Below are positions 1,848 through 39,958 of a DNA stretch of 64,000 nt, in pieces. The position numbers were made by a program, and so were the translations under genes. The stretch lies in contig CAYYSI010000002.1 in NCBI GenBank assembly GCA_964474435.1, positions 163,604 through 227,603 of the forward strand, written 5' to 3'. The notes beneath the pieces are model-generated. The model was not told where the DNA came from. It saw only the letters and a program-made list of their open reading frames with translations, and made no database searches. Numbering within the stretch: the first letter of the stretch is position 1; the number at the start of each line of letters is the position of its first letter. This stretch comes from an uncultured Candidatus Saccharibacteria bacterium. Lineage in GTDB: Bacteria > Patescibacteriota > Minisyncoccia > Phycocordibacterales > UBA9973.

Positions 1848-1854
1848 TTGCTGT

Positions 1855-3480: not shown

Positions 3481-3487
3481 AAGGGGA

Positions 3488-3811: not shown

Positions 3812-3832
3812 TAATTAATATAGTATCTCGAT

Positions 3833-4459: not shown

Positions 4460-4499
4460 TAAAAACACCCCGACTTGCGGGGCATTTTTATGTTAGAAC

Positions 4500-6378: not shown

Positions 6379-6514
6379 ATATTTTTTTGTTATTTAATTT
6401 TAATAATTTTTTAAAAGCGCGAGTGTTTTGGAGAAAGTTATTAACAGAAATCCCGCTTTTGGCGGGTTCTACACTTGCACATGCATTCTACCATACGTTA
6501 TACTTAGAATCAAC

Positions 6515-7894: not shown

Positions 7895-7900
7895 CATCAT

Positions 7901-8221: not shown

Positions 8222-8222
8222 T

Positions 8223-9047: not shown

Positions 9048-9050
9048 TCT

Positions 9051-9944: not shown

Positions 9945-9952
9945 TATATATA

Positions 9953-10387: not shown

Positions 10388-10451
10388 TAATAGTCTCTCG
10401 TGAAAACACTGCCTGATCCGCAGTGTTTTTTTCATTTCAGAGTGAGTTTTT

Positions 10452-16127: not shown

Positions 16128-16158
16128 AAATACTGCCAGGATTTGGCAGTATTTAATG
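16128..16158. terminator. Bidirectional intrinsic terminator between recJ (+) and the 16163-16405 (-) ORF.
   Basis: aaaaa-tactgcca-ggatt-tggcagta-ttta. Perfect 8-bp stem with A/T tracts on both sides. Confidence 0.5.
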
Positions 16159-16162
16159 AAAG

Positions 16163-16405
16163 CTACTTTTTTAACAGAAATTTTCTCAAACCGTTTTTTA
16201 GGTTATCAATTCTTTCAGGAAGGATAGTTACTGTAAATTCAGTACGTCCCCGGCTCGTTTTGATAGAAGAATGTTCAATTGTCCCATTTGTGTTTAAGAA
16301 AATGAAAGTTTTAAACTCCTCACTTTCAAAAATTTTCTTTGGGAAGTTTTGTACAAAGTAATCTTCAGCAGTTTTTGTCACTTGAATATCTAATATGCGT
16401 GCCAT
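16163..16405 (-). CDS. Hypothetical small protein.
   Basis: 80-aa ORF lying in an AT-rich stretch. No motif recognised. Confidence 0.3.
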   Translation of the reverse strand: MARILDIQVTKTAEDYFVQNFPKKIFESEEFKTFIFLNTNGTIEHSSIKTSRGRTEFTVTILPERIDNLKNGLRKFLLKK

Positions 16406-16545
16406 ATGTAATGTGCGTTTAGTTATTACACACGGTATATGGATTGCTTCGTACTGTCAAATGATTAACTAATGCCATTGACATCTCAGTACTTTATAGT
16501 AGTATTTGTGGAAACAATTTTTAACCTGTTCTAAAACAAACAAAT

Positions 16546-17811
16546 ATGAAAAGAAGAGAAATACCGAAACTTTGCTTCAAAGAGCTCTTGGTATTAGCCA
16601 GAGAACTCATTTTTGTAGAAAAAACACATCTTCCTCAACGTATTACGATGAGAGAATTTTCTCGGAGCATTCAGGTTGAATTCATTAAGAGATTCCGTTG
16701 CTATAAGCAAAATCTTCGTGATGAACTTCATGGCGAATTATCAATTATGATTGCTGATATGAATGGGATCATTCTAGACAAAATAGAGATGCCCAAACGA
16801 GAGATAATCAAGATACCTCTTTCGGATGATATATATAAAAACCTTCCGGATATTGAATTTCTTGAGTTACTAAAATCAGCACTCCATGCTGATGATGGGG
16901 TGTATAGTTCATTTGGTTTTACACCAAAACTTTCGCTTCATCGGGAAACTACCGATAGGTTACAAATGGGTCTCAACTGCTTCGGTATCGCAAGTCTTAT
17001 TGGATCATATTGCACATGGAAAGGAATTTCTGTTGAACTTGGTATTACACCAGATCATCCGTACGCGGTCGTTTCCTTGAAAGAAGGAGTATATCTTGTT
17101 GACCATTTCAATCTCATAAAGTTAGACGGTGAAATCAAACGATATAAGGATTACGGGGTGTATTATCCTACAGAGAAAGAAGAAGGGAAAATCCTCGCTA
17201 TGATCATGGTAGTTCCGTTTGATGATGGCTTGGTCTATGAAATACTTGAGAATACAGAAATGCTTAGATGTGTACTCAATGGTACTCAAAAGGATATGTT
17301 ACCTGGTACAGAATGTAAAGGTAAAATTATTGCAAAGGAAAATGAAACGATTCTCAATCGTTGCAACTGGAAACAATTACAGATGTTGCTATTTCCTGAA
17401 ATTACGGCTGCATTTGCTAAGCATCAGCTTGGATGGCAGCTCAATGTATCTATGATCTATCAACAGCGATATGAATGGTATGCTCAGAAAATTTTTGAAT
17501 ATGCTGCATTTCATGCACAAAAAGCAACACTATTTTCTAGTGAAAAGTTCGATGAAGCACATGAAGTATTGGTCGACGTATTTAAGGATCATTACGAAGA
17601 AATCATGTTGTATTTAGAACATGGAATGGAATTTAGTGAATTTGTACCATTAGATGTTTGTAACTATTTTTGCACTCTAAAAGTTGCAATAAATAAAAAA
17701 GAACAAGAGGATGGTACACTTGTTGCTGAGCATATTTATAAAATGATCAACACTAAGCTTGTTGACATGAATATCCAAAAGAAGTATAAGGAAACAAATC
17801 TCGTCACCTAA
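16546..17811 (+). CDS. Hypothetical protein with a transglutaminase-like (papain-fold Cys-His-Asp) core.
   Basis: 421 aa in an AT-rich region. GLNCFGIASLIGSYCTWKGISVELGITPDHPYAVVSLKEGVYLVDHFN matches the order G-x-C ... GI ... H ... D of transglutaminase-like cysteine peptidases. Confidence 0.45.
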   Translation: MKRREIPKLCFKELLVLARELIFVEKTHLPQRITMREFSRSIQVEFIKRFRCYKQNLRDELHGELSIMIADMNGIILDKIEMPKREIIKIPLSDDIYKNLPDIEFLELLKSALHADDGVYSSFGFTPKLSLHRETTDRLQMGLNCFGIASLIGSYCTWKGISVELGITPDHPYAVVSLKEGVYLVDHFNLIKLDGEIKRYKDYGVYYPTEKEEGKILAMIMVVPFDDGLVYEILENTEMLRCVLNGTQKDMLPGTECKGKIIAKENETILNRCNWKQLQMLLFPEITAAFAKHQLGWQLNVSMIYQQRYEWYAQKIFEYAAFHAQKATLFSSEKFDEAHEVLVDVFKDHYEEIMLYLEHGMEFSEFVPLDVCNYFCTLKVAINKKEQEDGTLVAEHIYKMINTKLVDMNIQKKYKETNLVT

Positions 17812-17822
17812 ATCATCAGGTT

Positions 17823-18029
17823 ATGTTTTTTATTAGTAAAAAGAAGTTTAAAGAAACAGTTAAAAACGCAGTAGATGAGCATCTGAAGAGTACGGGAAAG
17901 GAGGTGATAGTACAAAAGACAGTAGTACAACATCACCACCATTCAAATTCAGGTAGTAGTTCATCTGTTCGTCAGGATGGATCAAATATAAATGGTCCAT
18001 CAGAAGCTCTAAAGAAATCGTGGCTATAA
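17823..18029 (+). CDS. Small hypothetical protein with a His4 and Ser-rich stretch.
   Basis: 68-aa ORF containing HHHHSNSGSSSS. It could be non-coding. Confidence 0.2.
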   Translation: MFFISKKKFKETVKNAVDEHLKSTGKEVIVQKTVVQHHHHSNSGSSSSVRQDGSNINGPSEALKKSWL

Positions 18030-18547: not shown

Positions 18548-19279
18548 GTGGGAATGAAAAGCCAAAAAGATCATATAGCGTTGTATACAGATGGGGCTTC
18601 CCGTGGCAATCCAGGCCCAGGCGGTTGGGCAGCGATTGTGATAGGTGATGAAAAGGTGATTGAGCTTGCAGGAGCAAAGAAGCCCGCGACGAACAACCAA
18701 ATGGAACTCCAAGCAGTGATCGCAGGGCTTGCGTATGCGCAGAAACATTTCCCTGATGGGGCAGTTGAGCTCCATGCAGACTCGCGCTATGTGCTTAATG
18801 GTATTGAGAAATGGCTTGATGGATGGGTCCGGAAAGGGTGGATGACAATGGTCAAGAAGCCGGTGGAAAATAGAGATCAATGGGAAGAGCTCCTTGCACT
18901 CCGTGATCACTTTGGCAAAAATCTGAAACTCACCAAAGTCGACGGACACAGTGGACATCTCTACAACGACCGATGTGACGAGCTTGCAGTTACGGCTGCA
19001 CTTGGCAAAAAGGTAGATCTCTTTGAAGGGAGCACAAAGGCATACGACACCTATCTCGCCGACAATCCTCCAACCTCTGAGAAAAAATCTCCCTCAAAAG
19101 CAAAGACAGGACCAGCCTACTCGTACGTGTCACTTGTCGATGGCAAGGTGTACGCCGACAAAGATTGGGCAGCGTGTGAGAAGCGCGTCAAAGGAAAAAA
19201 CGCCAAGTTCAAAAAAGTATTTTCAAAAGCAGAAGAGACTGATTTGATACAGGATTATACATTGGCGAGTTTGATGTAG
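18548..19279 (+). CDS. rnhA: Ribonuclease HI with a C-terminal hybrid-binding (dsRHbd / Cauli_VI-like) domain.
   Basis: 243 aa. The RNase H core has TDGASRGNPGPGGWAA, ...NNQMELQAV... and DGHSGHLYNDRCDELA. The C-terminal ~60 aa, YSYVSLVDGKVYADKDWAACEKRVKGKNAKFKKVFSKAEE, matches the pattern YAV..G...GIY..W.EC...V.G.....YKKF of RNase H1 hybrid-binding domains. Confidence 0.75.
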   Translation: MGMKSQKDHIALYTDGASRGNPGPGGWAAIVIGDEKVIELAGAKKPATNNQMELQAVIAGLAYAQKHFPDGAVELHADSRYVLNGIEKWLDGWVRKGWMTMVKKPVENRDQWEELLALRDHFGKNLKLTKVDGHSGHLYNDRCDELAVTAALGKKVDLFEGSTKAYDTYLADNPPTSEKKSPSKAKTGPAYSYVSLVDGKVYADKDWAACEKRVKGKNAKFKKVFSKAEETDLIQDYTLASLM

Positions 19280-19329
19280 ATTCTTGACTTAGCGCTATTT
19301 CTAAGTAGGATTGTCAAAAACTACAACAT

Positions 19330-19944
19330 ATGAAGCCTGACAATCAAAATGCTGACGCACTTCAGTTTATAGAGGTAATAGCTTCTATAGCTAAAAAGTT
19401 ACCGCCTTCAGAGGTTGCATATTGGGGACGTTCGGAAACTCACTTACTCAATCGGCTGAAGAGAAGGCCAACAGAATTTTTACAAGAACTTGAATCTGAA
19501 AGAGGATGTATTCCACAACAAGGTCAAGCAATAACTGATGAAATTTTGGAATCTGCACCATTTCGTCGAAAAGTTTCTATATCCGATAGAAGTCAATTGA
19601 GGGATATTTATAAAGGAACTGTTCAAACAGAAGTAATGCCATATTTAGCAGTTTGCAGAATGTCCCTTGAAGAAATTTTGGGAATTATTGATGATGATGG
19701 AATGTTTTGTACATTAACTCTTCAGCAAATTCGATACCTGGCGACGAAGCAAAATCAAAGAGGAAGAAAAGGAATACTTTCATTTGAAGGATTTAATTAC
19801 TTCTTGATAAGAACTAATAGAAATCGGATGACCTTAGGATCTTTGTTTTGGATAAAAAATGACGATTTTCCTTATGCAAGAAACAAATGGGACTTTGGTT
19901 TATCAGAGAACGTAATTAGTGGAAGATTATTGTTACCTATCTAA
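19330..19944 (+). CDS. Hypothetical protein.
   Basis: 204-aa ORF in an AT-rich stretch, followed by a strong terminator. No family recognised. Confidence 0.35.
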   Translation: MKPDNQNADALQFIEVIASIAKKLPPSEVAYWGRSETHLLNRLKRRPTEFLQELESERGCIPQQGQAITDEILESAPFRRKVSISDRSQLRDIYKGTVQTEVMPYLAVCRMSLEEILGIIDDDGMFCTLTLQQIRYLATKQNQRGRKGILSFEGFNYFLIRTNRNRMTLGSLFWIKNDDFPYARNKWDFGLSENVISGRLLLPI

Positions 19945-19949
19945 AAGTA

Positions 19950-19985
19950 TTAATACCGACATTGGTCGGTATTTTTTGTTGTAAA
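19950..19985 (+). terminator. Intrinsic terminator.
   Basis: aataccgac-attg-gtcggtatt followed by TTTTTGTT. Confidence 0.6.
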
Positions 19986-20026
19986 TTGTTTAGAGAAAAT
20001 TTAATCTTCATCAGTATCATATCTGC

Positions 20027-21481: not shown

Positions 21482-22034
21482 TAGATGCAAAGAAATCCTC
21501 GACGTACTGTTTCTTGCCGCTTGGCTGATAGTCGGCGACGTATGCGTGCTCCCACATATCAAGCGCGATGATGATACTGCAGTCCGCAAGCTGCCCGAGG
21601 TGTTGCTCGTCTATCCATGCAGGGAGGAGCATGTCAGACTTCTTGTCATAGCAGAGCATTGCCCAGCCGATGCCGCGGGTCATGGCAGTCATTTTCATGC
21701 GAGTGACAAAGATGTCGATTGTGTCCCATTGCTTGATGATTTTTTTATATAAATCAGACTCAGGATTGGGAGCAGTCGCGCCATCTGCAAGGAGTGCAAA
21801 GTACACTTCGTGGTTGCGCATGCCACCCCATTCAAATGAAAATCTGCGCTGCAGCTCACCGAGCTCATAGGTGTATTTCTCAATATTCTCGGCGTCTTTA
21901 GTGAATTCTCGTGCGTGATCAGCAATAAGGTTTGCGTGCTTCACATATCCCACATAGAGCTTCTTGTGTTCGTCATGCGTCGTTTGGGTAATTTTGCCAA
22001 AAGGTTGGGGTGAAAGGGTTTGTTCTGTAAACAT
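21432..22034 (-). CDS. Fe/Mn superoxide dismutase.
   Basis: The start was re-chosen at MFTEQTL within ORF 21432-22154. Motifs HDEHKKLYVGYV, WGGMRNHEVYF, GIGWAMLCYD and LDMWEHAYVADYQ are classic Fe/Mn-SOD ligand and signature regions. Confidence 0.8.
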   Translation of the reverse strand: MFTEQTLSPQPFGKITQTTHDEHKKLYVGYVKHANLIADHAREFTKDAENIEKYTYELGELQRRFSFEWGGMRNHEVYFALLADGATAPNPESDLYKKIIKQWDTIDIFVTRMKMTAMTRGIGWAMLCYDKKSDMLLPAWIDEQHLGQLADCSIIIALDMWEHAYVADYQPSGKKQYVEDFFASINWSAVEALYDDAKNK

Positions 22035-22122
22035 ATAGGGAGTATATAGGAATTGGGGAGGGTTGGGTATATGCAGTTTGACTTTCTGATGGAAATAAGG
22101 AGAATGGGTAAAAACTATTAAT

Positions 22123-22434
22123 ATGAAAAATAATGACAATGAACCCTTTTTCATTGACGAAAAAGGAAGAATTATTTTTAAAATAACTAAAACAATTAAG
22201 AAAAAGATTACAGTATCTGAAGATGAAATGAAGACACTTTTGATACAGCGTCACATTATCAGCAATAGCAGAGACCCTCTTTTTTCTAAAAGAATAAAAA
22301 AATCAGGAGCGAAATCTTTAGCCGAATATGCTAAAAAACTAGAAAGTAGCCCATCTGTTATTGAGTATGCCAAAAAAATGGCAGCAAAAATAAATGCTTT
22401 AAATCTAATTGTTCATCAAAGAGTTGTTATATAG
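22123..22434 (+). CDS. Small Lys-rich hypothetical protein.
   Basis: 103-aa ORF, very AT-rich. No family recognised. Confidence 0.25.
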   Translation: MKNNDNEPFFIDEKGRIIFKITKTIKKKITVSEDEMKTLLIQRHIISNSRDPLFSKRIKKSGAKSLAEYAKKLESSPSVIEYAKKMAAKINALNLIVHQRVVI

Positions 22435-22515
22435 ACAACTTTTTTTATTTGTCCAATATAATAATATTCAAAACAACTTTAAATAATATTTAACCATCCA
22501 CGCTACAATACCTCC

Positions 22516-23376
22516 ATGAACAGAAAAACCGCAACGCTTGCGATCATGCTGACAATCATCCTCGTGCTTGGTATTGCGGCGGCGGTGCTTCAGCCGAGTG
22601 CTGTGGTGGGCAAGGGAAGTGTTGCGATGCTCGATATTGGCCAGGGTGATAGCTTCCTCATTCAGTCAGCGAGTGGCACGCAGCTCCTCATTGATGGTGG
22701 CAAAGATTCAAAGGTGTTGAGCGAGCTCAGCAAGGCAATGCCGACCGGCGACCATACGATTGATGTTGTTATTGCCACGCACCCAGATGCAGATCACATT
22801 GGAGGACTACCATTGGTCCTTGAGCGATATAGTGTCGGACTCTTCCTCACCTCAGAGGTTACGAGTGACAGTCAGGTATTCCGAGATCTCAATGGATTGA
22901 TTCATGAAAAAAATATTCCTGCATATTATGCGCGAGGTGGCATGACACTTGCACTTGATGATGAGACTTCGTTCAAAGTCCTCTTTCCCGATCGTGACAC
23001 CACTGGCTGGGAAACCAACACTGCATCGGTTGTGGGACGACTCGATATGAGCGGTCGCAGCATGTTGCTCAATGGAGACTCACCGATATCTATCGAACAA
23101 TACCTCGTACAACACGCGCCGCGCGACATCGATGTCGATATTTTGAAACTAGGGCATCATGGTTCCAAGACTTCGAGTAGTGCTGAATTCCTCAAGGCAA
23201 CAAGTCCAGCACTCGCGCTGATCTCTGCGGGTGTGAACAATCGTTACGGCCATCCTGCACCCATTGTCCTCGATCGCCTCAAGGAGCTCCATATCCCTTG
23301 GGTCTCGACGCAGCAACACGGACTGGTGACATTCACGACCGATGGTACCAAGTGGGTGGAGAAGGATGAGAAATAG
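22516..23376 (+). CDS. Membrane-anchored metallo-beta-lactamase-fold protein, equivalent to the ComEC C-terminal nuclease domain but encoded as a separate gene.
   Basis: 286 aa with an N-terminal TM helix. Motifs AMLDIGQGDSFLIQ, IATHPDADHIGG and KLGHHGSKTSS fit the MBL HxHxDH pattern as found in ComEC. Confidence 0.7.
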   Translation: MNRKTATLAIMLTIILVLGIAAAVLQPSAVVGKGSVAMLDIGQGDSFLIQSASGTQLLIDGGKDSKVLSELSKAMPTGDHTIDVVIATHPDADHIGGLPLVLERYSVGLFLTSEVTSDSQVFRDLNGLIHEKNIPAYYARGGMTLALDDETSFKVLFPDRDTTGWETNTASVVGRLDMSGRSMLLNGDSPISIEQYLVQHAPRDIDVDILKLGHHGSKTSSSAEFLKATSPALALISAGVNNRYGHPAPIVLDRLKELHIPWVSTQQHGLVTFTTDGTKWVEKDEK

Positions 23377-26094: not shown

Positions 26095-28236
26095 ATGCAA
26101 CGAGAGTACCCCCTCAATAAAACACGTAACTTCGGAATCATTGCCCACATTGATGCCGGCAAAACCACGACTTCAGAACGCGTGCTCTACTATACTGGTC
26201 AGAGTCACAAGATCGGAGAAGTGCACGATGGTGAGACCACAACTGACTGGATGGAACAGGAGCGAGAGCGCGGTATCACTATCACTGCAGCTGCGGTGAC
26301 TTGTGCGTGGATCCCAACATATGAAAAAGGGGACAAGAGTAAGAGCTTCCGATTCAACATCATCGATACGCCAGGACACATCGACTTTACGGTGGAAGTG
26401 AAGCGATCACTGCGTGTACTCGACGGAGCAGTAGTGGTGTTCGACGGTGTTGCAGGAGTAGAACCTCAATCAGAAACAAACTGGCGTTACGCTGATGAAG
26501 CGCAAGTACCGCGTATTTGTTTTGTGAATAAACTCGACCGAACTGGTGCATCATTTGAACATTCATACAAGACGATCCAGGAACGACTTTCAAAGAAAGC
26601 TGTGCGATACCAGATCCCAATCGGACTTGAAGAAAATCACGAAGGTGTTGTTGATCTCCTCGAAATGAAGGCCTACTACTTCGAAGGTGAGATGGGGAAC
26701 AAGGTGATCCAAAAGGAGATCCCAGAAAACATGCTCGCCGAAGCCAAGACACTTCATGCAGAACTCGTCGAACGCATTGTCGAAAATGACGAAGCACAAA
26801 TGAATGCATACCTCGAAGGCAACGAACCAAGTCTTGCAGAACTCAAGGCAACCATGCGCAAGGCAGTCATTGCAAATGCAATCTTCCCAGTCTTTGCAGG
26901 TTCTGCATTGAAAAACAAAGGTGTACAGCTCGTCCTCGACGCCGTTGTTGACTACTTGCCAGCACCGATTGATATCAAGGCGATCACTGGTGTTAATCCA
27001 GATACTGACGAAGCGATTGATCGACCAGCAGACGATAGTGCACCGTTTTCAGCGCTCGCATTCAAGCTCATGGCCGATCCATTCGTTGGACAGCTCGTCT
27101 TCTTCCGTGTGTATTCAGGTACGCTCGAAGCAGGGTCATCGATCTACAATCCACGTACTCGCAACAAGGAACGCATCTCTCGTATCGTGCGCATGCAAGC
27201 CGACCAGCGTGAAGAAGTCCAGAAAGTATTCGCAGGAGAAATCGCGGCAGCTGTGGGACTCAAGGATGTGATCACGTCAGACACACTCTGTGATGAAGCA
27301 AATCCGATCGCGCTTGATCGTATCAAGTTCCCAGACCCAGTTATCTCACTCCGTATTGAACCAAAGACCAAAGCTGACCAAGAAAAGATGGGTCTTGCAC
27401 TCAACCGTCTCGCCAAAGAAGACCCAACCTTTGTGGTATCAACTGATCCAGAAACGATGGAAACTATCATCGCAGGTATGGGAGAGCTCCACCTCGAGAT
27501 CATCATCGATCGTATGAAGCGTGAGTTCAACGTTGAAGCAAACGTTGGTAAGCCACAGGTTGCATACCGCGAGACTATCACTGGTACTGCAGAAGTAGAA
27601 GGTAAGTACATCAAGCAGTCTGGAGGTAAGGGTAACTACGGTCACGTGAAAATCAAGATGAAGCCAATGGATCAGTCTATCAAGGCAGAAGACTTGCCAA
27701 AGAACACGACTCGCAAAAATGGTTACGAATTCATCAACAACATCAAAGGAGGAGCTATTCCAAATGAATTCATCCCACCAATCGAAAAAGGATTCCGAGA
27801 AGGTTTGGAACGTGGTGTACTCGCAGGCTTCAAACTCGAAAACGTCTCTGTCGAACTTTACGATGGATCATTCCACGAAGTCGACTCAAACGAAATGGCC
27901 TTCAAGATTGCTGCATCAATGGCAGTGCAGGATGCTGCAAAGATGGCAAAGCCTGTTATTCTTGAACCAATGATGAAAGTCGAAGTCGTCACTCCTGACA
28001 AGTTCATGGGAGATGTGACGGGATCACTCTCAGGCAAGCGAGGTATCATCGAAGGAATGGAGACTCGTGGACTCAACCAGGTCGTCAACGCAGTTGTACC
28101 GCTTTCAGAAATGTTTGGCTACATGACGAACCTTCGCTCTATGACCGAAGGACGCGCCGGATTTACGATGGAATTCCTCCGTTACGACATCGTGCCGACC
28201 AACGTTGCCGAGACGATCATCGCAGCGAGAAAATAA
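26095..28236 (+). CDS. fusA: Elongation factor G.
   Basis: 713 aa. G-domain motifs AHIDAGKTT and DTPGHIDF, with domains II-V present. Confidence 0.95.
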
Positions 28237-28249
28237 TTACTCACAAAAT

Positions 28250-28275
28250 CTCCCCGAAAGGGGAGTTTTTGTTTT
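28250..28275 (+). terminator. Intrinsic terminator after fusA (CTCCCCGAAAGGGGAG plus T-tract).
   Basis: Perfect 6-bp GC stem with GAAA loop and TTTTTGTTTT. It belongs to the recurrent ccccgaaagggg terminator family in this window. Confidence 0.6.
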
Positions 28276-28301
28276 GACAAAAAGTGAAATATAGATATAA
28301 T
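28274..28301 (+). promoter_or_regulatory. Consensus sigma70-like promoter (TTGACA-16-TATAAT).
   Basis: ttgacaaaaagtgaaatatagatataat, directly downstream of the fusA terminator and upstream of the 141-aa ORF. Confidence 0.5.
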
Positions 28302-28326
28302 AAAGAAAAACTTAAAACAATTTCAT

Positions 28327-28752
28327 ATGAACAAAAGCAAAGTCCTCTTGCCAGAGGCTATTTTGATCCTTGGCAAGAAAAAAGGAATCATACGGATTCT
28401 AGGAACCAAAAGGAAATGGAAAATAAATGCAACACAGCGTACTGGCGAAATGCAGGTTGAGGGTACCGGAAGACTTGTAATCCGAGTCCTAAAACATCCT
28501 TGCAGCAGTTCTTTATCTGTTGCATACTCGCCAAACGAACATGAAGAGAAATCTTTATTCACCGTACTAAGCTCTAATGTAGAAGGCCAAACTGAACGGA
28601 TCAGGGTTATACCGACCAATGGTTTTGAAGAGTCTCCCGGTTTAGTTACTATAGTGAAGGGGATATATAATTATTTCAATCAACTCCTTCCCCCTACTAT
28701 GCGGTTACCAGAGTTTGCCACCCAATGTTCATCCGGTGATGTTTGCTATTAA
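28327..28752 (+). CDS. Hypothetical protein inserted between fusA and tuf.
   Basis: 141-aa ORF, AT-rich, flanked by its own promoter and terminator. No family recognised. Coding status is uncertain. Confidence 0.3.
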   Translation: MNKSKVLLPEAILILGKKKGIIRILGTKRKWKINATQRTGEMQVEGTGRLVIRVLKHPCSSSLSVAYSPNEHEEKSLFTVLSSNVEGQTERIRVIPTNGFEESPGLVTIVKGIYNYFNQLLPPTMRLPEFATQCSSGDVCY

Positions 28753-28763
28753 TTTTTTTTGAA

Positions 28764-28792
28764 AGAGCCTTCGCAAGAGGCTCTTTTTCTTT
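28764..28792 (+). terminator. Intrinsic terminator.
   Basis: agagcct-tcgcaag-aggctct followed by TTTTTCTTT. Confidence 0.55.
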
Positions 28793-28818
28793 GACAAAAC
28801 ACCTCCACCTGTTATCAT
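28791..28818 (+). promoter_or_regulatory. Sigma70-like promoter for tuf (TTGACA-16-TATCAT).
   Basis: ttgacaaaacacctccacctgttatcat. The ~80-nt leader contains hairpin gcctcc-tccc-ggaggc. Confidence 0.45.
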
Positions 28819-28899
28819 AGGGGACAACCTATTTTGCGCCTCCTCCCGGAGGCTGGTTGGTTTTGTTTGTACGATTATTAGATATATAACATTTATTAT

Positions 28900-30090
28900 A
28901 TGGCAGAAGCATTTAAGAGAGACAAGCCACACGTAAACGTTGGTACCATCGGTCACGTTGACCATGGCAAGACCACGCTTACCGCGGCAATCCTTCATGT
29001 ATTGAACATGGCAGGAAACACAGTTAAGTTGAAGGGTGTTGGAGACATCGACGGTGCTCCAGAAGAAAAGGCACGTGGTATTACGATCAACATTTCGCAC
29101 AATGAGTACGAAACTGCGACTCGTCACTACGCACACATTGATGCTCCAGGTCACGCCGACTACATCAAGAACATGATTACTGGTGCAGCTCAGATGGACG
29201 GTGCAATCATTGTGGTTGCAGCGACTGATGGTGCTATGCCACAGACTCGTGAACACATCCTCCTTGCAAAGCAAGTTGGTGTGCCAAAGATCATCGTGTT
29301 CCTCAACAAGTGTGACATGGTGGACGATGCCGACATGATCGACCTCGTTGAAGAAGAAATCCGAGAAATCCTCGGCAAGCAAGGCTTTGACAAAGACTGC
29401 CCGGTTATCCGCGGATCAGGTCTCAAGGCACTTGAATCAACTTCTATTGATGACCCATGGGCACAAAAGGTTCTTGAGCTCACAAACGCGCTCGACACCT
29501 ACATCCCAATGCCAGAACGTGAAATCGACAAGCCATTCCTTATGCCGATCGAAGATATCTTTTCTATCGAAGGACGTGGAACGGTGGTTACTGGTCGTAT
29601 CGAACGTGGTCAGGTAAAGGTTGGAGAAGAAATTGAAATCGTTGGTATCAAGGACACTGTGAAAACAACTGTTACTGGTATCGAAATGTTCAACAAACAG
29701 CTCGACACTGGTTTGGCAGGTGACAACGCAGGTATCCTCCTTCGCGGTGCGAAGAAAGATGACCTCACTCGTGGTCAGGTGCTTGCAAAGGTTGGCTCAG
29801 TGAAGCCTCACACAGAATTTGAAGGTGAAGTGTACATCTTGAAGAAGGAAGAAGGCGGACGCCACACTCCATTCATCAACGGATACAAGCCTCAGTTCTA
29901 CGTGCGAACAACTGACGTGACTGGAGAAGTATCACTCCCAGCAGGAACAGAAATGGTCATGCCAGGAGATACTGTAAAGATCACTGTCAAGCTCGTTGTG
30001 CCAGTTGCGCTCGAAGACCAAATGCGTTTTGCTATCCGAGAAGGAGGCCGAACCGTTGGAGCTGGAGTGGTAACAAAGGTTATTGCGTAA
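28900..30090 (+). CDS. tuf: Elongation factor Tu.
   Basis: 396 aa. [10 protein letters not shown] and DAPGHADY, with high identity to canonical EF-Tu throughout. Confidence 0.95.
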
Positions 30091-30174
30091 ATACTAATAA
30101 GGCGTGAGTCGCGGACTCTTTCATGAAAACATAAGCACTCATGATCGATCATCCAACGCTATGCCGAGTTCATT

Positions 30175-30534
30175 ATGACAACAAAAACCCCAGCAAAAAA
30201 AACGAAAGCTACGAAAAAGGACGACGTACAAAGCATGCTTCGCATCCGAGTACGAGCGTACGAAAACAAAATTCTTGATGCGTCAGTGAAGCAGATCGTG
30301 GACACTGCAGTACGGTACGATGCCGTAGTCCGTGGTCCGATCCCATTGCCAACTGAGATCAAGAAGTACACGGTCAACCGTTCTCCGTTCATCTACAAAA
30401 ACGCTCGTGAGCAATTTGAGATGCGCGTACACAAGCGATTGATCGACATCGAAAACCCTTCACCCAAAGTCATTGAGGCGCTTACAAACCTCTCAATGCC
30501 ATCTGGTGTAGATATTGATGTCAAAATGATGTAA
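30175..30534 (+). CDS. rpsJ: 30S ribosomal protein S10, with a Lys-rich N-terminal extension.
   Basis: [24 protein letters not shown] ... RGPIPLPT ... [24 protein letters not shown]. Confidence 0.9.
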
Positions 30535-30595
30535 GGGAACATTTATCCAGCGAAGACGTAGTCTGAGTCGGGTAAAGCAAAAATTACTCAGCAAA

Positions 30596-30624
30596 AAATC
30601 CCCGAAAGGGGATTTTTTGTTTTA
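30596..30624 (+). terminator. Intrinsic terminator (ATCCCCGAAAGGGGAT plus T-tract) after rpsJ.
   Basis: aaaaaatccccgaaaggggattttttgtttt. Identical hairpins recur at 31708 and 32163. Confidence 0.6.
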
Positions 30625-30660
30625 GAAATTCTTTAACTCGTACCTGATACGATTTATATT

Positions 30661-31053
30661 ATGAACAAAAAAGATTATTCAATCTGGCATGATATAAAAA
30701 CTGAAGTTCATAATAAAAAAGAGCGGCCATATTTTCATGAGCGAGAAATATGGTTTTGTATGCTCGGTGCAAATATTGGTTTTGAACAAGATGGAAGAGG
30801 AAAAGAATATCTGCGCCCTGTGGTCGTTATAAGAAAGTTTAATAATGAGGTTTGTCTGGTAATCCCTCTGACCAAGAATCATAAGAAAGGAATTCATTAT
30901 TTTTCTTTCTTATATAAAGATGAGATGGTTAGCACTGCTATTCTTTCACAGGTGAGACTTGTTGATGCAAAACGTTTGGATTACAAATCTGGAACTATAT
31001 CAGAACTTGATTTTCTATCATTAAAACAAAAACTCAAGCGGTTGATTGCCTGA
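30661..31053 (+). CDS. MazF/PemK/Kid-like endoribonuclease toxin-fold protein, apparently solitary.
   Basis: 130 aa. EREIWFCMLGANIGFEQDGRGKEYLRPVVVIRKFNNEVCLVIPLT and VRLVDAKRL align with the MazF/EndoA pattern (GD.Y...L.P..GSEQ.G.RPVLV. ... IRTIDK.RL). No small antitoxin-like ORF lies upstream. Confidence 0.55.
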   Translation: MNKKDYSIWHDIKTEVHNKKERPYFHEREIWFCMLGANIGFEQDGRGKEYLRPVVVIRKFNNEVCLVIPLTKNHKKGIHYFSFLYKDEMVSTAILSQVRLVDAKRLDYKSGTISELDFLSLKQKLKRLIA

Positions 31054-31207
31054 GTTTTTGTACTTTTTACCCCGAAGGGAGGGCCGAAGCCATTTGTACT
31101 ACTAGTATACTTGGCGCTCGTGATAAGTCAATTTTCCCCGAAGGGAACGTGAGTAGCCCAAAATGTATACTAAGTATATCAAACCCTATTTGCTATAATT
31201 ACTCAAT

Positions 31208-31699
31208 ATGAAAAATATACAACAGGGTTTTATCGGCATAGTACTGATTATTGTTGCGGCACTTGCAATCGGAGGAGGTGTATATTACCAACACAAGAAC
31301 AAAGTGGAAGTGAAGCAGCAAGTGGACACTAGTGTTGTTGTAAACGATGAGCAGAAAACTGTTGAGGAACAAAAACCTGCACCAGCAAAGAAACCAGTAG
31401 TACTAAGCTTTGAAGCAAAGGCGCGTGCTGCTGCGAAGGCGGGTGAATGTGGGAAAAAGGGTACGATCGGCGCTGCTACAAATGTACAAGAAGAATATGA
31501 GTACGCACTATTCACTATTGATGGCTCAACTACTGCGAACTATTGTGCTGTCGATTTGTATGCAGGTACTATCACTGCTATCAATTCAAGACCCCTATGT
31601 GATGCAAATGGTGAGAATTGTCATGGAACTGGACTTATGCTGACACCTAAAAAGCTATACGAAAGTATTCCTGTAGCACCTGACCCTTCAACTCTCTAA
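31208..31699 (+). CDS. Membrane-anchored hypothetical protein, Cys-containing extracytoplasmic domain.
   Basis: 163 aa. N-terminal TM helix (FIGIVLIIVAALAIGGGVYY), a Lys/Glu/Pro linker and a C-terminal domain with 4 Cys. Confidence 0.4.
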   Translation: MKNIQQGFIGIVLIIVAALAIGGGVYYQHKNKVEVKQQVDTSVVVNDEQKTVEEQKPAPAKKPVVLSFEAKARAAAKAGECGKKGTIGAATNVQEEYEYALFTIDGSTTANYCAVDLYAGTITAINSRPLCDANGENCHGTGLMLTPKKLYESIPVAPDPSTL

Positions 31700-31707
31700 G
31701 TAAAAAA

Positions 31708-31758
31708 ATCCCCGAAAGGGGATTTTTTGTTTGACCAATTCTTGAAAAAGAGTAGAGT
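31708..31758 (+). promoter_or_regulatory. Terminator plus promoter module (ATCCCCGAAAGGGGAT plus T-tract, then TTGACC-16-TAGAGT).
   Basis: aaaaaatccccgaaaggggattttttgtttgaccaattcttgaaaaagagtagagt. A near-identical module recurs at 32163-32210. Confidence 0.5.
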
Positions 31759-31776
31759 GAAGCAAAACTTACAATT

Positions 31777-32154
31777 ATGAACCTTATATTTAAAAAACTA
31801 TTTTTGGGAGTATTACTCTCCACAGTGTTACTTGTACCCTTTTTAGAAGGTGAGTATGTTAAGAGCCAAATTATCAGGATAGTTCTTGCATGGCTCGGTG
31901 TATGGCTTGCATGGGTACTATTTCTGATGAGTGTTACTCGAATCTTTTCCGTAAAACGTACTGACCTGATAAATATTGCCACAATATTTATTTCGTTTTT
32001 CATATTAGTTCTCTTGGTTGTTCACTCAAAGGTCTTGCCAGATCATTTTCTCCGAACATTCTTTCCAGTGATTACGGCGGTATTGTATTGTGGAGCTTTC
32101 TCTTATGCTCGTGCTTACATCAAAGCTAAAAAAGAAGCAAACATATCCTGCTAA
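31777..32154 (+). CDS. Small polytopic hypothetical membrane protein.
   Basis: 125 aa with 3-4 predicted TM helices. Confidence 0.4.
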   Translation: MNLIFKKLFLGVLLSTVLLVPFLEGEYVKSQIIRIVLAWLGVWLAWVLFLMSVTRIFSVKRTDLINIATIFISFFILVLLVVHSKVLPDHFLRTFFPVITAVLYCGAFSYARAYIKAKKEANISC

Positions 32155-32162
32155 TCCTTCAA

Positions 32163-32210
32163 ATCCCCGAAAGGGGATTTTTTTGACTTATTTTCAAAAA
32201 AGAGTAGGGT
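32163..32210 (+). promoter_or_regulatory. Terminator plus promoter module (ATCCCCGAAAGGGGAT plus T-tract, then TTGACT-16-TAGGGT).
   Basis: aaatccccgaaaggggatttttttgacttattttcaaaaaagagtagggt. It is paralogous to the 31708 module. Confidence 0.5.
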
Positions 32211-32229
32211 ACAAGAAAAATATAATTTT

Positions 32230-32514
32230 ATGAGTAAAATCATCAATCTCCAGGTTTATTGGCAGACTCACTGTGACCAAAAATATCTCGTCATAAAGAA
32301 AGCTGACAAGGAGTATGTTAATCCGCAGGCAACAATTCGTTCTCTTGCTCTTGATATCGAAGACAACTTTCTCCCTAAAGAAAAAGATGCTCTTGTAAAT
32401 ATCAATTGTAGTCCAGATTTTGAGATATCGATTAGATACGGAAAAAACCCTAAACATAACCAGGCACTTTCCGAGGAGGAAGAAGTTCAATTATTCAAAG
32501 AGCTTCATGATTAA
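32230..32514 (+). CDS. Hypothetical small protein.
   Basis: 94-aa ORF. No family recognised. Confidence 0.35.
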   Translation: MSKIINLQVYWQTHCDQKYLVIKKADKEYVNPQATIRSLALDIEDNFLPKEKDALVNINCSPDFEISIRYGKNPKHNQALSEEEEVQLFKELHD

Positions 32515-32534
32515 AAACTTCTGATAGAGATGTA

Positions 32535-32558
32535 AGGCCCTATTTAATAGGGCTTTTT
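32535..32558 (+). terminator. Intrinsic terminator.
   Basis: aggcccta-ttta-atagggct followed by TTTTT. Confidence 0.5.
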
Positions 32559-32566
32559 ATATAAAC

Positions 32567-32594
32567 TTGCGTGATTTTAAAAGCCGTGTATAAT
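32567..32594 (+). promoter_or_regulatory. Sigma70-like promoter for the rplC operon (TTGCGT-16-TATAAT).
   Basis: ttgcgtgattttaaaagccgtgtataat. The ~60-nt leader contains hairpin agaccaa...ttggtct. Confidence 0.5.
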
Positions 32595-32654
32595 CTCCAG
32601 ACCAATTAAAAGGCCGCCTTTGGTCTCAGAAAAATGGTCCAATACCCGCCCTAG

Positions 32655-33290
32655 GTGGCGAGCAAGAACATGAAATTCATCATCGGAACAAAACTCAATA
32701 TGACGCAGCGCTTCGACGAGAAGGGAATCGTTACTCCTGTAACGGCTATTTCTGTTGACGCAAACGTTGTGACAGCCCTCAAGACTGTCGAAAAGGATGG
32801 CTATACTGCAGTCCAGGTTGGATTCGGGACCCAAAAGGAATCTCGTGTAAATCAGGCACAGCTCAAGGCCAATGACGGCAAGGCATTCAAAGGCATGCAG
32901 GAATTCCGCACAGACGGTGCGACAGATGTTGCGGTCGGAGATGCAGTTGCACTCTCTGCATTTGCAGCAGGGGATGATGTCGTTGTGACTGGGACATCCA
33001 AGTCAAAAGGCTTCCAAGGTGTGGTCAAGCGACACGGCTTCCACGGAGGACCTCGCTCTCACGGTCAGAAGCACTCAGAACGTGAACCAGGATCAATTGG
33101 TGGTGGACCAGGACGTGCCGGAGGCCGCGTGGTCAAGGGTATGCGCATGGCAGGACGCACCGGAGGTGATACTGTGACTGTGAAGGGCCTCAAGGTAGTG
33201 GCAGTTGATGAAGCTTCAAACATGATCTTCATCAGTGGCGCAGTGCCAGGTCGTCGAGGAACGCTTGTTCGTATCGTGAGTATGAGTTAA
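32655..33290 (+). CDS. rplC: 50S ribosomal protein L3.
   Basis: The conserved core begins MKFIIGTKLNMTQRF at 32670, which may be the true start. The track ORF opens 5 codons earlier at a GTG. Confidence 0.9.
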   Translation: MASKNMKFIIGTKLNMTQRFDEKGIVTPVTAISVDANVVTALKTVEKDGYTAVQVGFGTQKESRVNQAQLKANDGKAFKGMQEFRTDGATDVAVGDAVALSAFAAGDDVVVTGTSKSKGFQGVVKRHGFHGGPRSHGQKHSEREPGSIGGGPGRAGGRVVKGMRMAGRTGGDTVTVKGLKVVAVDEASNMIFISGAVPGRRGTLVRIVSMS

Positions 33291-33294
33291 TTAT

Positions 33295-34005
33295 ATGGCT
33301 ACAACAAAAACAACAACTAAAAAGGCTCCAACCACAGTATCTCTCGATGCAACTATTTACTCACAGGCTGGAAAGAGTGCTGGAACAGTTACTCTTCCCG
33401 AAAAAGTATTCGGACTCAAGTGGAATGCCGACCTCGTACACGAAGTGGTGACATCAATGATGGCCAACAAGCGCGCAGGCACCGCTCATACCAAGGATCG
33501 CTCAGAGGTTTCTGGTGGTGGTAAAAAGCCATGGAAGCAAAAGGGAACTGGTCAGGCTCGACACGGCTCAACTCGATCTCCTATCTGGAGTGGTGGAGGT
33601 ATCACATTCGGTCCTCGCAACGACAAGGATTATTCTAAAAAGATCAACAAAAAGACTCGCGTCAAAGCACTCTTTACGGTCATCTCTCGCAAGTACGCAC
33701 TTGGTGCAATGCTCTTTGTGGATGCGGTATCACTCTCTGCAATGAAGACAAAGGATGCACAGTCAGTCGTGTCTGCATGGGCAAAGGTTGATGGATTTGA
33801 TAAGATCGACTCAACCAAGAAAACGGGTACACTTATGGTGCTTCCTGAGCATGATGTAAACGTTGAAAAGAGTTTTGCAAACCTCCCTGGTGTCACCACT
33901 GTGTTGCTTGCAGATATCAACCCACTCACGCTCATGAATTTCCGTCACATCGTGATGGTAAATCCCGCAGCTCTCGTACCAGTGTTAGAAGCAAAGATGA
34001 AATAA
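33295..34005 (+). CDS. rplD: 50S ribosomal protein L4.
   Basis: 236 aa. ...GGGKKPWKQKGTGQARHGS... is the canonical L4 motif. Confidence 0.9.
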   Translation: MATTKTTTKKAPTTVSLDATIYSQAGKSAGTVTLPEKVFGLKWNADLVHEVVTSMMANKRAGTAHTKDRSEVSGGGKKPWKQKGTGQARHGSTRSPIWSGGGITFGPRNDKDYSKKINKKTRVKALFTVISRKYALGAMLFVDAVSLSAMKTKDAQSVVSAWAKVDGFDKIDSTKKTGTLMVLPEHDVNVEKSFANLPGVTTVLLADINPLTLMNFRHIVMVNPAALVPVLEAKMK

Positions 34006-35264: not shown

Positions 35265-35462
35265 ATGAAAAAGTTCTATATTTGCTGCTTGATAGTATGG
35301 CTCGGTCTGCTGGTTGTACTCATACTGATTGGTTCAAAACCTCAGTATCAAAAACAAAGCGGGGCCATATTTGGACTATTATTCTTTAGTTTCCCCCTGC
35401 TTCTCATTTCAGCCGGCAATATCCTTAATACGTTTTTTAATAAAATCCTATTTCATAAATAG
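35265..35462 (+). CDS. Small hydrophobic hypothetical protein (2 TM helices).
   Basis: 65-aa ORF, MKKFYICCLIVWLGLLVVLILIG...FGLLFFSFPLLLISAG. Its 3' end overlaps the unused upstream portion of ORF 35329-35895. Coding status is uncertain. Confidence 0.3.
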   Translation: MKKFYICCLIVWLGLLVVLILIGSKPQYQKQSGAIFGLLFFSFPLLLISAGNILNTFFNKILFHK

Positions 35463-35487
35463 GATTTTATCTATTATACTTCTTGGA

Positions 35488-35895
35488 ATGGAAGAAAAAC
35501 TCTCAAAGAATATATCAGAAAAGAAACGCTTCTCAATCATTGCTCGCGCGCGAAGTTTTAAGCATGCAGTACGGGGGATTGGTATCATTTTTAAAACACA
35601 GCACAATGCGTGGGTGCATACAATCGCAGGGATTGCTGTAGTGGGACTGGGATTGCATCTCAAGATCAATGAAGCTGAATGGTCTGCCATTATCATAGCC
35701 ATAGCTGCTGTATTGGCCGCAGAAGGCTTCAATACAGCCCTCGAAATCGACATTGATCTTACCAGTCCAGACTACCATCCCTATGCCCGGGACACGAAGG
35801 ATGTGGCCGCAGGGGCAGTACTTTTGACGGTTATCGGAGCAGTTTTGGTCGGATTGATCATATTTATTCCAAAGCTCATACCGCTTTTCTCATAA
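35488..35895 (+). CDS. dgkA: Diacylglycerol kinase / undecaprenol kinase family protein (DgkA-like).
   Basis: The start was re-chosen at MEEKLSKNISEKKRFS within ORF 35329-35895. SFKHAVRGIGIIFKTQHNAWVH ... AEGFNTALEIDIDLTSPDYHPYARDTKDVAAGAVLL matches the DgkA signature (AE..NTAIE..VD......H...K.AKD.GSAAV). Confidence 0.65.
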   Translation: MEEKLSKNISEKKRFSIIARARSFKHAVRGIGIIFKTQHNAWVHTIAGIAVVGLGLHLKINEAEWSAIIIAIAAVLAAEGFNTALEIDIDLTSPDYHPYARDTKDVAAGAVLLTVIGAVLVGLIIFIPKLIPLFS

Positions 35896-39331: not shown

Positions 39332-39958
39332 ATGAAAAAGATAATAATAACCCCTACGCTCAAGGAGTACATACTCCTTCCTATTATTCCTCCACTCAGT
39401 ATTTATCTCTGTCTTCAATTTCTCCCACAACTTGCTGATTTTCTTAATGGCACAGTGATTGTTTTTGTTTGTGTATATATTATAGCTGCTATACATATCC
39501 GAAAATGGACATGGAAACAGCTTGGTGTTGAATTTGGCAATATTACATTAGCGAAAATAGGACTTTGTTTTGCTGGTCTCGCAGCAGGTATTGGTTGGCT
39601 ATGGATTCTCGGACATCTTAATCCAGAAAAATGGGATTTTAGTACGCAAAAAAATATCGGTCTTGTTAAATGGGCCGGACTTGGAGTCTTCGGACAAGTT
39701 CTTATTTTTCAGGGATATTTGCCCCAGCTCGGAAATAGTTTAGAGATAAGACCCTGGATCAACTTTAGTTGGAACGCAATTTCTTTTATAGGAATGCATC
39801 TTATTTTCAGTGATCTTGGAAAAGTTATGCCTATTATTATTCCCGCGTCTATCCTTTTTGCAGGACTGTATTGGAAATGCCGTAATAGCCTTTTGGTATC
39901 GATTGTTCATATGCCACTGACCGCTATTACTATTCTGGAACTTATTTTTAAAATCTGA
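39332..39958 (+). CDS. CPBP/Abi-like polytopic membrane protein, inserted between rplE and rpsZ.
   Basis: 208 aa with ~6 TM helices. FIGMH fits motif 2 (F...H) of CPBP intramembrane proteases and SIVHMPLT may be motif 3. The EE..R motif 1 is not evident. AT-rich. Confidence 0.4.
   Translation: MKKIIITPTLKEYILLPIIPPLSIYLCLQFLPQLADFLNGTVIVFVCVYIIAAIHIRKWTWKQLGVEFGNITLAKIGLCFAGLAAGIGWLWILGHLNPEKWDFSTQKNIGLVKWAGLGVFGQVLIFQGYLPQLGNSLEIRPWINFSWNAISFIGMHLIFSDLGKVMPIIIPASILFAGLYWKCRNSLLVSIVHMPLTAITILELIFKI

Follow-up and report, generated by a model that had tools for sequence, protein, structure and literature searches.

In MazEF and PemIK (Kid-Kis, EndoA-EndoAI), which are toxin-antitoxin (TA) systems of type II, the toxin is accompanied by a protein antitoxin, which is usually encoded upstream in the same operon. 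A gene for a protein of this same Pfam family (PF02452) and fold is found in a 64-kb stretch of contig CAYYSI010000002.1 from an uncultured Candidatus Saccharibacteria bacterium, between the ribosomal protein genes rpsJ and rplC. This whole stretch is referred to here as the window, and coordinates count from its position 1; L-numbers (L001, L004, L010, etc.) are labels of the loci with which it was compared. The protein, encoded by the first open reading frame (ORF1) of a four-gene island, differs from those of MazEF and PemIK in that it carries an extra conserved N-terminal segment of 28 residues, in that no protein antitoxin is encoded adjacent to it, either in the window or in 57 other loci, and in that its only conserved partner is an RNA gene. 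The latter is predicted to specify a small RNA (sRNA) that converges on the 3′ end of the toxin gene from the opposite strand, and the pairing of a PemK-like protein with this sRNA is the main subject of what follows.

Two other types of TA system resemble this arrangement in part. In type I systems with a 3′ overlap, such as par (Fst-RNA II) of pAD1 and TxpA-RatA and BsrG-SR4 of Bacillus subtilis, an sRNA with its own promoter converges on the 3′ end of the toxin gene, as is predicted here, and in par the two RNAs share a bidirectional terminator, which is also what is predicted for PemK and its sRNA. The toxins of these systems are typically hydrophobic membrane peptides of less than ~60 amino acids (aa), with SymE and RalR as exceptions, whereas ORF1 encodes a soluble 130-aa RNase of a type II family. 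Moreover, the sRNA described here has a conserved structured 5′ half outside the overlap, and no second pairing region was found at the translation start of the toxin. In type III systems (ToxIN, CptIN, and TenpIN), as in this locus, an endoribonuclease toxin (with a MazF/Kid-like fold in the case of ToxN) is associated with a structured RNA, and extra RNA units are occasionally seen in the loci analyzed here as well. However, type III antitoxins are tandem repeat arrays encoded upstream of the toxin and on the same strand, with a terminator in between, while here a single unit (plus one partial unit) is located downstream and in antisense orientation. In addition, ORF1 matches PemK_toxin, and Pfam yields no ToxN family for it.

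A structured RNA tied to pemK genes is also known from Firmicutes, the pemK RNA motif of Rfam, but this motif is found in the 5′ untranslated region and on the sense strand, and no Rfam 15 match is obtained here. Antisense RNAs have been reported at loci of type II families, such as aMEF at mazEF (PMC8749433) and the antisense RNA of a RelBE module (PMC9325379). Those loci retain the protein antitoxin, and the antisense RNA fine-tunes the system, whereas the locus described here lacks a protein antitoxin and has a conserved gene for a structured RNA. There are also descriptions of toxin homologues that have no antitoxin gene next to them, namely MazF-mx of Myxococcus xanthus, with MrpC, and the single-chain EzeT (PMC4803016). 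The neutralizer of the former is an unlinked transcription factor and that of the latter is a fused domain, in contrast to the linked RNA gene that is the conserved partner in this case.

In a preliminary description of this DNA, the first gene of the island had been credited with the fold signature of a MazF/PemK endoribonuclease, and this assignment to the family has been confirmed. ORF1 matches Pfam PemK_toxin (PF02452) over residues 29-128 with an E-value of 7.8e-10 and 39.4 bits (cut-off 23.1), and a profile of 50 homologues matches the chains of MazF, PemK, and EndoA in the PDB. Among these homologues, R52 and P53 are invariant and T71 is conserved in at least 90%, and R52 and T71 align with R25 and T48 of B. 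subtilis MazF, so that the Arg and the Thr are placed as in the catalytic site of that enzyme. An AlphaFold2 model of the protein (mean pLDDT 72.8, core above 80) shows the SH3-like barrel of the MazF/Kid fold, and the top 50 Foldseek matches in the PDB are all MazF, PemK, EndoA, or MoxT structures, with a probability of 1.0 and TM-scores of 0.53-0.64. According to its Pfam score, its predicted fold, and the conservation of the catalytic Arg and Thr, ORF1 is thus a genuine member of the MazF/PemK family.

The preliminary description had also pointed out a 25-aa N-terminal extension. Such a segment is indeed present, although it is not peculiar to this gene, being conserved in several hundred homologues of 128-130 aa. 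The family to which ORF1 belongs comprises more than 737 clusters, nearly all of them of that length, and its named members come from Patescibacteria. The N-terminal 28 residues are conserved throughout the family, with K4, W9, and K13 invariant, and they are modelled as a helix followed by a low-confidence linker. Judging from the alignment, this "extension" is a hallmark of a large Patescibacteria subfamily of PemK, whose members share 50-85% identity across many lineages, with a mean column identity of 62%. Their genomic contexts vary, and include the rpsJ-rplC junction, the interval between TGT and UvrB, and others, and some loci (L009, L127, and L164) hold two PemK copies.

No ORF is found in the 126 nucleotides (nt) upstream of ORF1, as had been stated before, nor is an antitoxin gene conserved in this position in the family. 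For 57 loci that extend 400 nt or more to each side of the PemK gene, the 114 neighbouring proteins were clustered, and no cluster exceeds four members, so that the family has no conserved protein neighbour. A protein antitoxin was rejected on these two grounds. A role in defence was considered as well, as the preliminary description had suggested that the module might act in abortive infection. This proposal finds no support: PADLOC 2.0 gives no match for ORF1-4 at E-values up to 0.1, and only two weak relatives of the family appear among 2.9 million viral contigs, which led to the rejection of a link to defence or phages.

With regard to the expression of these PemK genes, a Shine-Dalgarno-like motif was observed in only 2 of 82 when the upstream 60 nt were scanned (30601-30660 in the window, which was included). 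A -10-like hexamer located 4-10 nt before the ATG was seen in 34% of the genes, compared to 10% at random positions. Both figures hint at leaderless mRNAs in part of the family, a feature that would favour control at the 3′ end.

The partner of the PemK gene is located immediately behind it. A post-stop block of the form GTTTT..TTACCCC-loop-GGGGAGGGCCGAAGCC(A/G)TTTGTA..AGTATA..N16-17..GTCAA is common to the window, L004, L006, and L009, which represent two genomic contexts. A scan of metagenome contigs with the PemK alignment provided 80 further loci, with protein identities of 49-75% and none of them at an rpsJ-rplC junction, and virtually all of the 92 loci examined have the element immediately 3′ to the PemK stop codon. 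Read on the minus strand, the RNA starts with ACAAAUGG at 31097, followed by the hairpin P1 (GGC-UUCG-GCC, 31091-31082) and the hairpin P2 (CCC-UUCG-GGG, 31079-31070), the length of which varies across loci. After an A-rich linker comes P3, a terminator hairpin of 14 bp (arms 31061-31048 and 31039-31026) that ends in a U tract (31025-31019). P3 includes the antisense sequence of the last PemK codons and of the stop codon, and for this reason it is predicted to function as a bidirectional terminator shared with the PemK mRNA.

Upstream of the RNA, a promoter of the sigma-70 type was identified with a score of 10 out of 12 in a promoter scan. It consists of the -35 box TTGACT (31131-31126), a 16-nt spacer, and the -10 box TATACT (31109-31104), located 6 nt before ACAAAUGG. 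This organization is conserved in the 76 loci that were aligned: the -35 box is TTGACA or TTGACT in 63 of them and its TTG is invariant, the -10 box is of the TAnnnT type, the spacer measures 16-18 nt in all, a TG is found at -15/-14 in 64, and the distance from the -10 box to ACAAAUGG is 6 nt in 71.

The conservation of the RNA was analyzed with a covariance model, R1, which was built exclusively from 28 other loci of the class with a long P2. This model recognizes the copy in the window with 57.6 bits (E-value 1.9e-17), which is its only strong match in the 64 kb. In 81 PemK loci it yields 79 matches of 38-107 bits, all of them on the strand opposite to PemK, while in 926 kb of ribosomal protein loci that lack this PemK, used as controls, the best match reaches 30 bits. 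In the resulting alignment, 97% of the cells are paired and compensatory changes occur in 20 of the 24 pairs (350 cells); none of 500 shuffles reached the observed values, and slid controls pair in 29-58%.

The strand of the RNA could also be established. On the minus strand, G-U pairs number 99 and A-C mismatches 10, the P1 loop is UUCG in 76 of 79 sequences, and the P2 loop is GNRA or UUCG in 71 of 79, tetraloops that are found on this strand only; the minus strand also folds better (-27.3 kcal/mol, z = -3.6) than the plus strand (-22.5 kcal/mol, z = -2.0). These three features fix the RNA strand as minus, and a structure in the 3′ untranslated region of the plus strand was rejected because of its non-canonical loops, the ratio of G-U to A-C, and its weaker fold. 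A search against Rfam 15 revealed nothing overlapping 31019-31100 at E-values up to 10 (in 2.2 kb) and nothing at the element at E-values up to 1 (in 20 kb). A small peptide encoded in the sRNA was rejected by inspection, since a sizeable minority of the loci have ACG in place of the AUG within ACAAAUGG and the frames differ.

Next to this RNA, which is designated A-type, the window contains a related partial unit of a second kind (B-type). This unit shows a TG-extended -10 box, TGATATACT (31181-31173), then ACAUUUUGGG-CUA-CUC, and then CCC-UUCG-GGG (31145-31136), and thus holds a P1 and a P2, but it has neither a P3 terminator nor its own toxin. Either it is left over as an orphan, or its transcription continues into the A-type unit. 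A complete B-type RNA with three hairpins is found in L015, where it follows a PemK of 35% identity and displays the same plan of promoter, P1, P2, and P3 terminator. Other deviations from a single unit were observed in L144, where an orphan A-type copy (2883-2974, minus strand) lies just upstream of the PemK gene, and in L166, where the P2-P1 part is duplicated in tandem (~3420-3470).

The 3′-overlap geometry typical of type I systems, together with a toxin of a type II family, leads to the proposal that the sRNA serves as an antitoxin or repressor and that its target is the 3′ end of the PemK mRNA. The first cassette of the island would thus be a two-component module, in which an endoribonuclease-type protein is encoded on one strand and an sRNA with its own sigma-70 promoter on the other. 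The two transcripts would be complementary over ~40 nt of the shared bidirectional terminator, and pairing of the sRNA with the 3′ end of the PemK mRNA would lower the stability or the output of the latter. The invariant 5′ part, ACAAAUGG-GGCUUCGGCC, may stabilize the RNA or additionally contact the protein. A cis-encoded, overlapping, and complementary sRNA, as in type I systems, is found here at the level of prediction. The control of a MazF-family toxin by a cis-antisense sRNA, with the geometry of a type I system and the toxin of a type II system, is the explanation favoured here, with a confidence a little better than even. The preliminary description had called this toxin solitary, a term that no longer fits a gene whose family has a conserved convergent sRNA gene as its only constant partner; on the other hand, its suggestion that the antitoxin might be non-canonical, and specifically an RNA, receives strong support from this same gene.

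Several considerations weigh against this explanation. We infer the transcription of the sRNA solely from the conservation of its promoter and its terminator, and P3, being palindromic in function, could be a shared terminator and nothing else. The covariation counts are somewhat inflated because the alignment was fitted to the model, and the independent MAFFT/RNAalifold approach supported P3 only (12 of 14 pairs); the plain alignment recovered just this hairpin because the P2 of variable length was misaligned, a problem solved by the covariance model of the long-P2 class. P1 is nearly invariant, so its covariation says little. The most conserved part of the RNA is its 5′ half, which does not overlap the toxin gene, and a purely antisense mechanism leaves this unexplained. 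Furthermore, no cognate-specific pairing was detected when the 5′ half of the sRNA was matched to the start of PemK translation (-14.06 kcal/mol for cognate and -13.94 kcal/mol for non-cognate combinations, p = 0.36). The conservation of this half and its lack of complementarity to the start region leave room for protein binding of the type III kind or for a role in RNA stability. The toxicity of PemK is putative, and its conserved N-terminal segment could itself restrain the enzyme. Finally, nearly all type I toxins known so far are small membrane peptides.

Some of these considerations lead directly to other explanations. It could be that the sRNA binds PemK itself in a type III-like manner, possibly as a pseudo-substrate through its 5′ UACAAAU, with no RNA-RNA pairing and with a convergent position that is incidental. 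In favour of this proposal, the non-overlapping 5′ part (ACAAAUGG and P1) shows the highest conservation of the RNA when loci with proteins of just ~50% identity are compared, and no pairing with the toxin translation start was found. The A-type and B-type RNAs both begin with ACA, and ACA and UACAU are cleavage motifs of characterized MazFs, a family whose fold resembles that of ToxN; the tandem or orphan extra units of the window (unit 2), L166, and L144 also recall type III loci. Nevertheless, the RNA is usually a single unit, downstream of the toxin and antisense to it, instead of a tandem array located upstream on the same strand; the toxin matches PF02452, with no ToxN-family match from Pfam; and the conserved overlap with the toxin 3′ end and the shared terminator constitute type I geometry. 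This explanation is considered unlikely, albeit with some standing. A toxin that is truly solitary is less probable than that. Such a toxin would be restrained by its N-terminal segment, tethered in cis in the manner of EzeT, or by an unlinked protein, an arrangement that has been proposed for MazF-mx with MrpC, and the element would be a 3′ stabilizer, a bidirectional terminator, or an unrelated sRNA. The family-wide N-terminal segment, with its three invariant residues, its predicted helix, and its low-confidence linker, fits the first of these options, and there are precedents for non-canonical antitoxins (PMC4803016). But a passive terminator needs neither a sigma-70 promoter at fixed spacing nor two extra hairpins with strand-specific tetraloops, and outside the ~80 unrelated contexts that it shares with the gene the element is not found.

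PemK may also not be a toxin at all. If this subfamily were a domesticated housekeeping RNase of Patescibacteria, and the sRNA its substrate, its cofactor, or a co-regulated product, the degree of conservation of the protein, which is high for a toxin, the location of the genes among housekeeping genes, the near absence of the family from viral contigs, and the lack of PADLOC matches would all be accounted for. What speaks against such a role is that the position of the gene is variable, with no synteny across loci, that two copies occur in three loci, that presence or absence at rpsJ-rplC differs among close relatives, that strains differ less in the cassette than in the sequences on either side of it, and that other TA modules occupy the same site. 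Together, these features fit a mobile selfish module, and the housekeeping role is regarded as improbable, even more so than the solitary toxin. The least credible explanation, to which hardly any weight is given, is that the element acts at the DNA level as a recombination site (attC-like or a transposon end) that mobilizes the PemK cassette, and is not an RNA gene. It is true that the cassette is present in many contexts, that hairpins lie at the breakpoints of island insertions and deletions, and that duplications of the 3′ end of the upstream gene flank the insert (GATGTAAGG in the window and TGT copies in L006). However, the extent to which G-U wobble exceeds A-C, the RNA tetraloops, the extended -10 promoter, and the U-tract terminator are features of an RNA gene, and no recombinase or transposase family turned up when the genes from fusA to rplO were scanned against Pfam, NCBIfam, and PADLOC.

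The remainder of the island consists of three further genes, and the features of the whole locus are listed below.

Features of the rpsJ-rplC region in the window (positions count from window position 1)
Feature	Position	Strand	Basis or remark
fusA	26095-28236		Upstream of tuf in the window
tuf	28900-30090		Left of rpsJ
rpsJ (ribosomal protein S10), left flank of the cargo site	30175-30534	+	Pfam Ribosomal_S10, E-value 1.5e-32
rpsJ terminator, A6-ATCCCCGAAAGGGGAT-T6G	30592-30619	+	Orthologous to the post-rpsJ terminator at the empty site of L010; L010, L013, and L014 compared
ORF1, MazF/PemK-family protein, 130 aa	30661-31053	+	Pfam PF02452
A-type small RNA, ~80 nt (predicted)	31019-31100	-	Covariance model, covariation
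sRNA promoter (predicted)	31104-31131	-	Promoter scan and alignment of 76 loci
B-type partial sRNA unit	31132-31181	-	Repeat D7; unit also in L004
ORF2, 163 aa, N-terminal membrane anchor and Cys-containing extracytoplasmic part	31208-31699	+	
Terminator-promoter module 1: A7-ATCCCCGAAAGGGGAT-T6G, then TTGACC-16-TAGAGT (ORF3 promoter)	31703-31758	+	
ORF3, polytopic membrane protein, 125 aa, orphan	31777-32154	+	
Terminator-promoter module 2: ATCCCCGAAAGGGGAT-T7 overlapping TTGACT-16-TAGGGT (ORF4 promoter)	32158-32210	+	
ORF4, 94-aa protein, orphan	32230-32514	+	
Right-end island terminator, GCCCTA-TTTAA-TAGGGC-T5	32527-32548	+	Preceded by GATGTAAGG
rplC promoter TTGCGT-16-TGTGTATAAT and 5′ leader with motif TGGTCCAAT, right flank	32567-32669	+	
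rplC	Listed from GTG 32655; likely ATG 32670		Followed by rplD, rplW, and rplB

As had been described, four AT-rich genes on the plus strand (30661-32514) separate rpsJ from rplC, and the GC content of the insert is 0.34-0.40, compared to ~0.46-0.50 in its flanks. In relation to the empty site of L010, the island extends from ~30620 to ~32557. The palindrome ATCCCCGAAAGGGGAT is present in exactly three copies, at 30598, 31708, and 32163 (the chance expectation being ~0.01), and a variant with two mismatches is found at 28250, on the 3′ side of fusA. It had been claimed that the same terminator bounds each gene. This is correct for rpsJ, ORF2, and ORF3, which are followed by the exact hairpin, and incorrect for ORF1 and ORF4, which end in different elements: that of ORF1 (31019-31181) includes the sRNA and differs from the shared hairpin. 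The near-identical promoters TTGAC(C/T)-16-TAG(A/G)GT reported for the last two genes are confirmed, and each of them forms with the hairpin one single module, which is duplicated ahead of ORF3 and ORF4. The last 9 nt of rpsJ including the stop codon (30528-30536), that is GATGTAAGG, recur at 32529-32537, at the right end of the island (repeat D6), and the PemK cassette of L006 has copies of the TGT gene's 3′ end on its flanks. Such repeats look like the end of the upstream gene duplicated at insertion, or like relics of recombination with the rpsJ end of another strain.

ORF2, ORF3, and ORF4 have hardly any relatives. ORF2 belongs to no Pfam or NCBIfam family, and a search of 5.8 billion proteins yielded four relatives only, one of which is encoded immediately upstream of rplC in a different genome. 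Among 1.84 billion representatives ORF3 matches nothing but a strain variant, and among 5.8 billion proteins ORF4 matches nothing but itself. These three cassettes would thus carry genes for near-orphan small membrane or secreted proteins, each with its own promoter and terminator. ORF2-4 were tried as antitoxins and rejected, since every other PemK locus lacks them and they are orphans or nearly so. A downstream protein, which had been put forward as a possible antitoxin, is accordingly unlikely, since these genes are absent or different in every other locus of the toxin.

The comparison with strain L001, which is near-identical, is informative about the island. L001 lacks 601 nt, including ORF2, and the breakpoints fall inside two similar hairpins (31136-31146 and 31708-31723). 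As the more distant L004 retains the left-hand element, the arrangement of L001 is most simply explained as a hairpin-to-hairpin deletion, and the repeated terminator hairpins may serve as recombination points for the gain and loss of cassettes. ORF3 differs between the two strains in 11 synonymous and 4 non-synonymous codons, and ORF4 in two positions, both synonymous; the mostly synonymous nature of these changes is consistent with the island ORFs being coding. When the region 29801-33365 was compared between both strains, the PemK cassette and parts of the island were observed to be less diverged than the flanking core genes, with 1 nt difference in 393 for PemK, 2 in 285 for ORF4, and 0 in 230 for the intergenic regions after ORF3, versus 10 in 360 for rpsJ and 36 in 621 for rplC. 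This low divergence suggests a recent exchange of the island between strains.

The accessory and variable nature of the island, predicted in the preliminary description, was corroborated by comparison of the junction in relatives. A total of 80 species-level relatives were gathered via rpsJ, and 76 of them have rpsJ and rplC in this order. The spacing is 0-150 nt in most, and 14 of the 76 carry inserts of at least 450 nt. Of the nine relatives nearest to the window (66-77% identity in rplC), six carry an insert at the junction, which in the other three is empty and measures 149-233 nt. The cargo found elsewhere at this site includes a DUF4258/DUF2283 pair, HicB/HicA with a pilin-like protein, a reverse transcriptase with bAvd that resembles a diversity-generating retroelement (DGR), and another PemK that is just 35% identical. 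A relative whose PemK is 80% identical shows the same start, from rpsJ to PemK, and then different genes. Larger cargo occupies the gap between rpsJ and rplC in two more distant relatives, with a DGR-like set of reverse transcriptase and bAvd in L079 (~1700-4520) and four paralogous secreted proteins of ~360-400 aa in L051 (~5970-11100).

The claim that this cargo lies in the interior of the S10 operon could not be upheld. In the close relatives examined, a terminator hairpin follows rpsJ, and the region ahead of rplC contains a conserved promoter, TTGCRC-16/17-TGTGTATAAT, and the TGGTCCAAT leader, which are kept with or without cargo in L004, L010, L011, L013-L016, L018, and L019. Judging from these signals, the junction is a boundary between transcription units and a recurrent variable cargo site in this Paceibacteria lineage. 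Because the "S10 operon" is split here by a terminator and a promoter, cargo is tolerated, and the presence of the island is less surprising than was first thought. The rplC leader (32595-32669) and its homologues in L004, L010, L011, L013-L015, L018, and L019 display TGGTCCA(A/C)T, a variable GC-rich segment, and GAACA before the start codon. It is possibly an autoregulatory leader of ribosomal protein genes, although it has no Rfam match and the 10 sequences did not establish a structure.

Other low-GC or non-ribosomal inserts were observed in the window. A diacylglycerol kinase gene of low GC content (35329-35895; Pfam DAGK_prokar, E-value 3.7e-30) is located between rplB and rpsS; its homologues lie downstream of rplC in many relatives of the clade, for which reason this insertion looks older and fixed. 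In the spc region, a 208-aa ORF (39332-39958) between rplE and rpsH coincides with a low-GC patch and has a sub-threshold match to Rce1/CAAX-protease-like proteins (E-value 0.008). The gap between fusA and tuf (28250-28900) holds the variant hairpin CTCCCCGAAAGGGGAG, a promoter that fits the consensus perfectly (TTGACA-16-TATAAT, 28274-28301), a second promoter-like site (28791-28818), and an ORF of 141 aa that matches no family and has no homologue in the loci compared; in L004 this gap is occupied by an unrelated 163-aa ORF. The gap could be a further cargo site or encode a non-coding RNA. Low-GC patches (0.35-0.40 versus ~0.47) at 4001-5000, 16001-18000, 19001-20000, and 22001-23000 may be other accessory insertions.

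The island is real and variable, and the pairing of the toxin with an sRNA is more interesting than could be seen when this DNA was first described. A broader proposal, for and against which our judgement is evenly balanced, is that these loci represent an unrecognized class of TA system widespread in Patescibacteria, in which PemK has no protein antitoxin and is neutralized by a convergent sRNA that shares its terminator, possibly with type III-like binding through ACAAAUGG-GGCUUCGGCC; together with HicAB, DUF4258/DUF2283 pairs, and DGRs, this class would populate a lineage-specific cargo site. In the literature, the coverage of which was incomplete, no report was found of a PemK or MazF with an RNA antitoxin, nor of this module in the candidate phyla radiation/Patescibacteria. 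The split of the S10 cluster, which is otherwise universally conserved, in this one clade, with mobile cargo between its units, matters for the use of ribosomal protein synteny in the binning and phylogenomics of these organisms. MazF and PemK are the textbook type II toxins, defined by their protein antitoxins; if the proposal is true, a large and conserved subfamily with an antisense sRNA as its sole linked partner would blur the boundaries between types I, II, and III, and the same toxin fold would be open to capture by RNA-based control. Patescibacteria, which have very small genomes and almost no characterized sRNAs, would also gain a new RNA family, along with a regulatory circuit that can be tested, and it could become possible to reinterpret as two-component modules the hundreds of PemK genes that are annotated as "orphan" in metagenomes.

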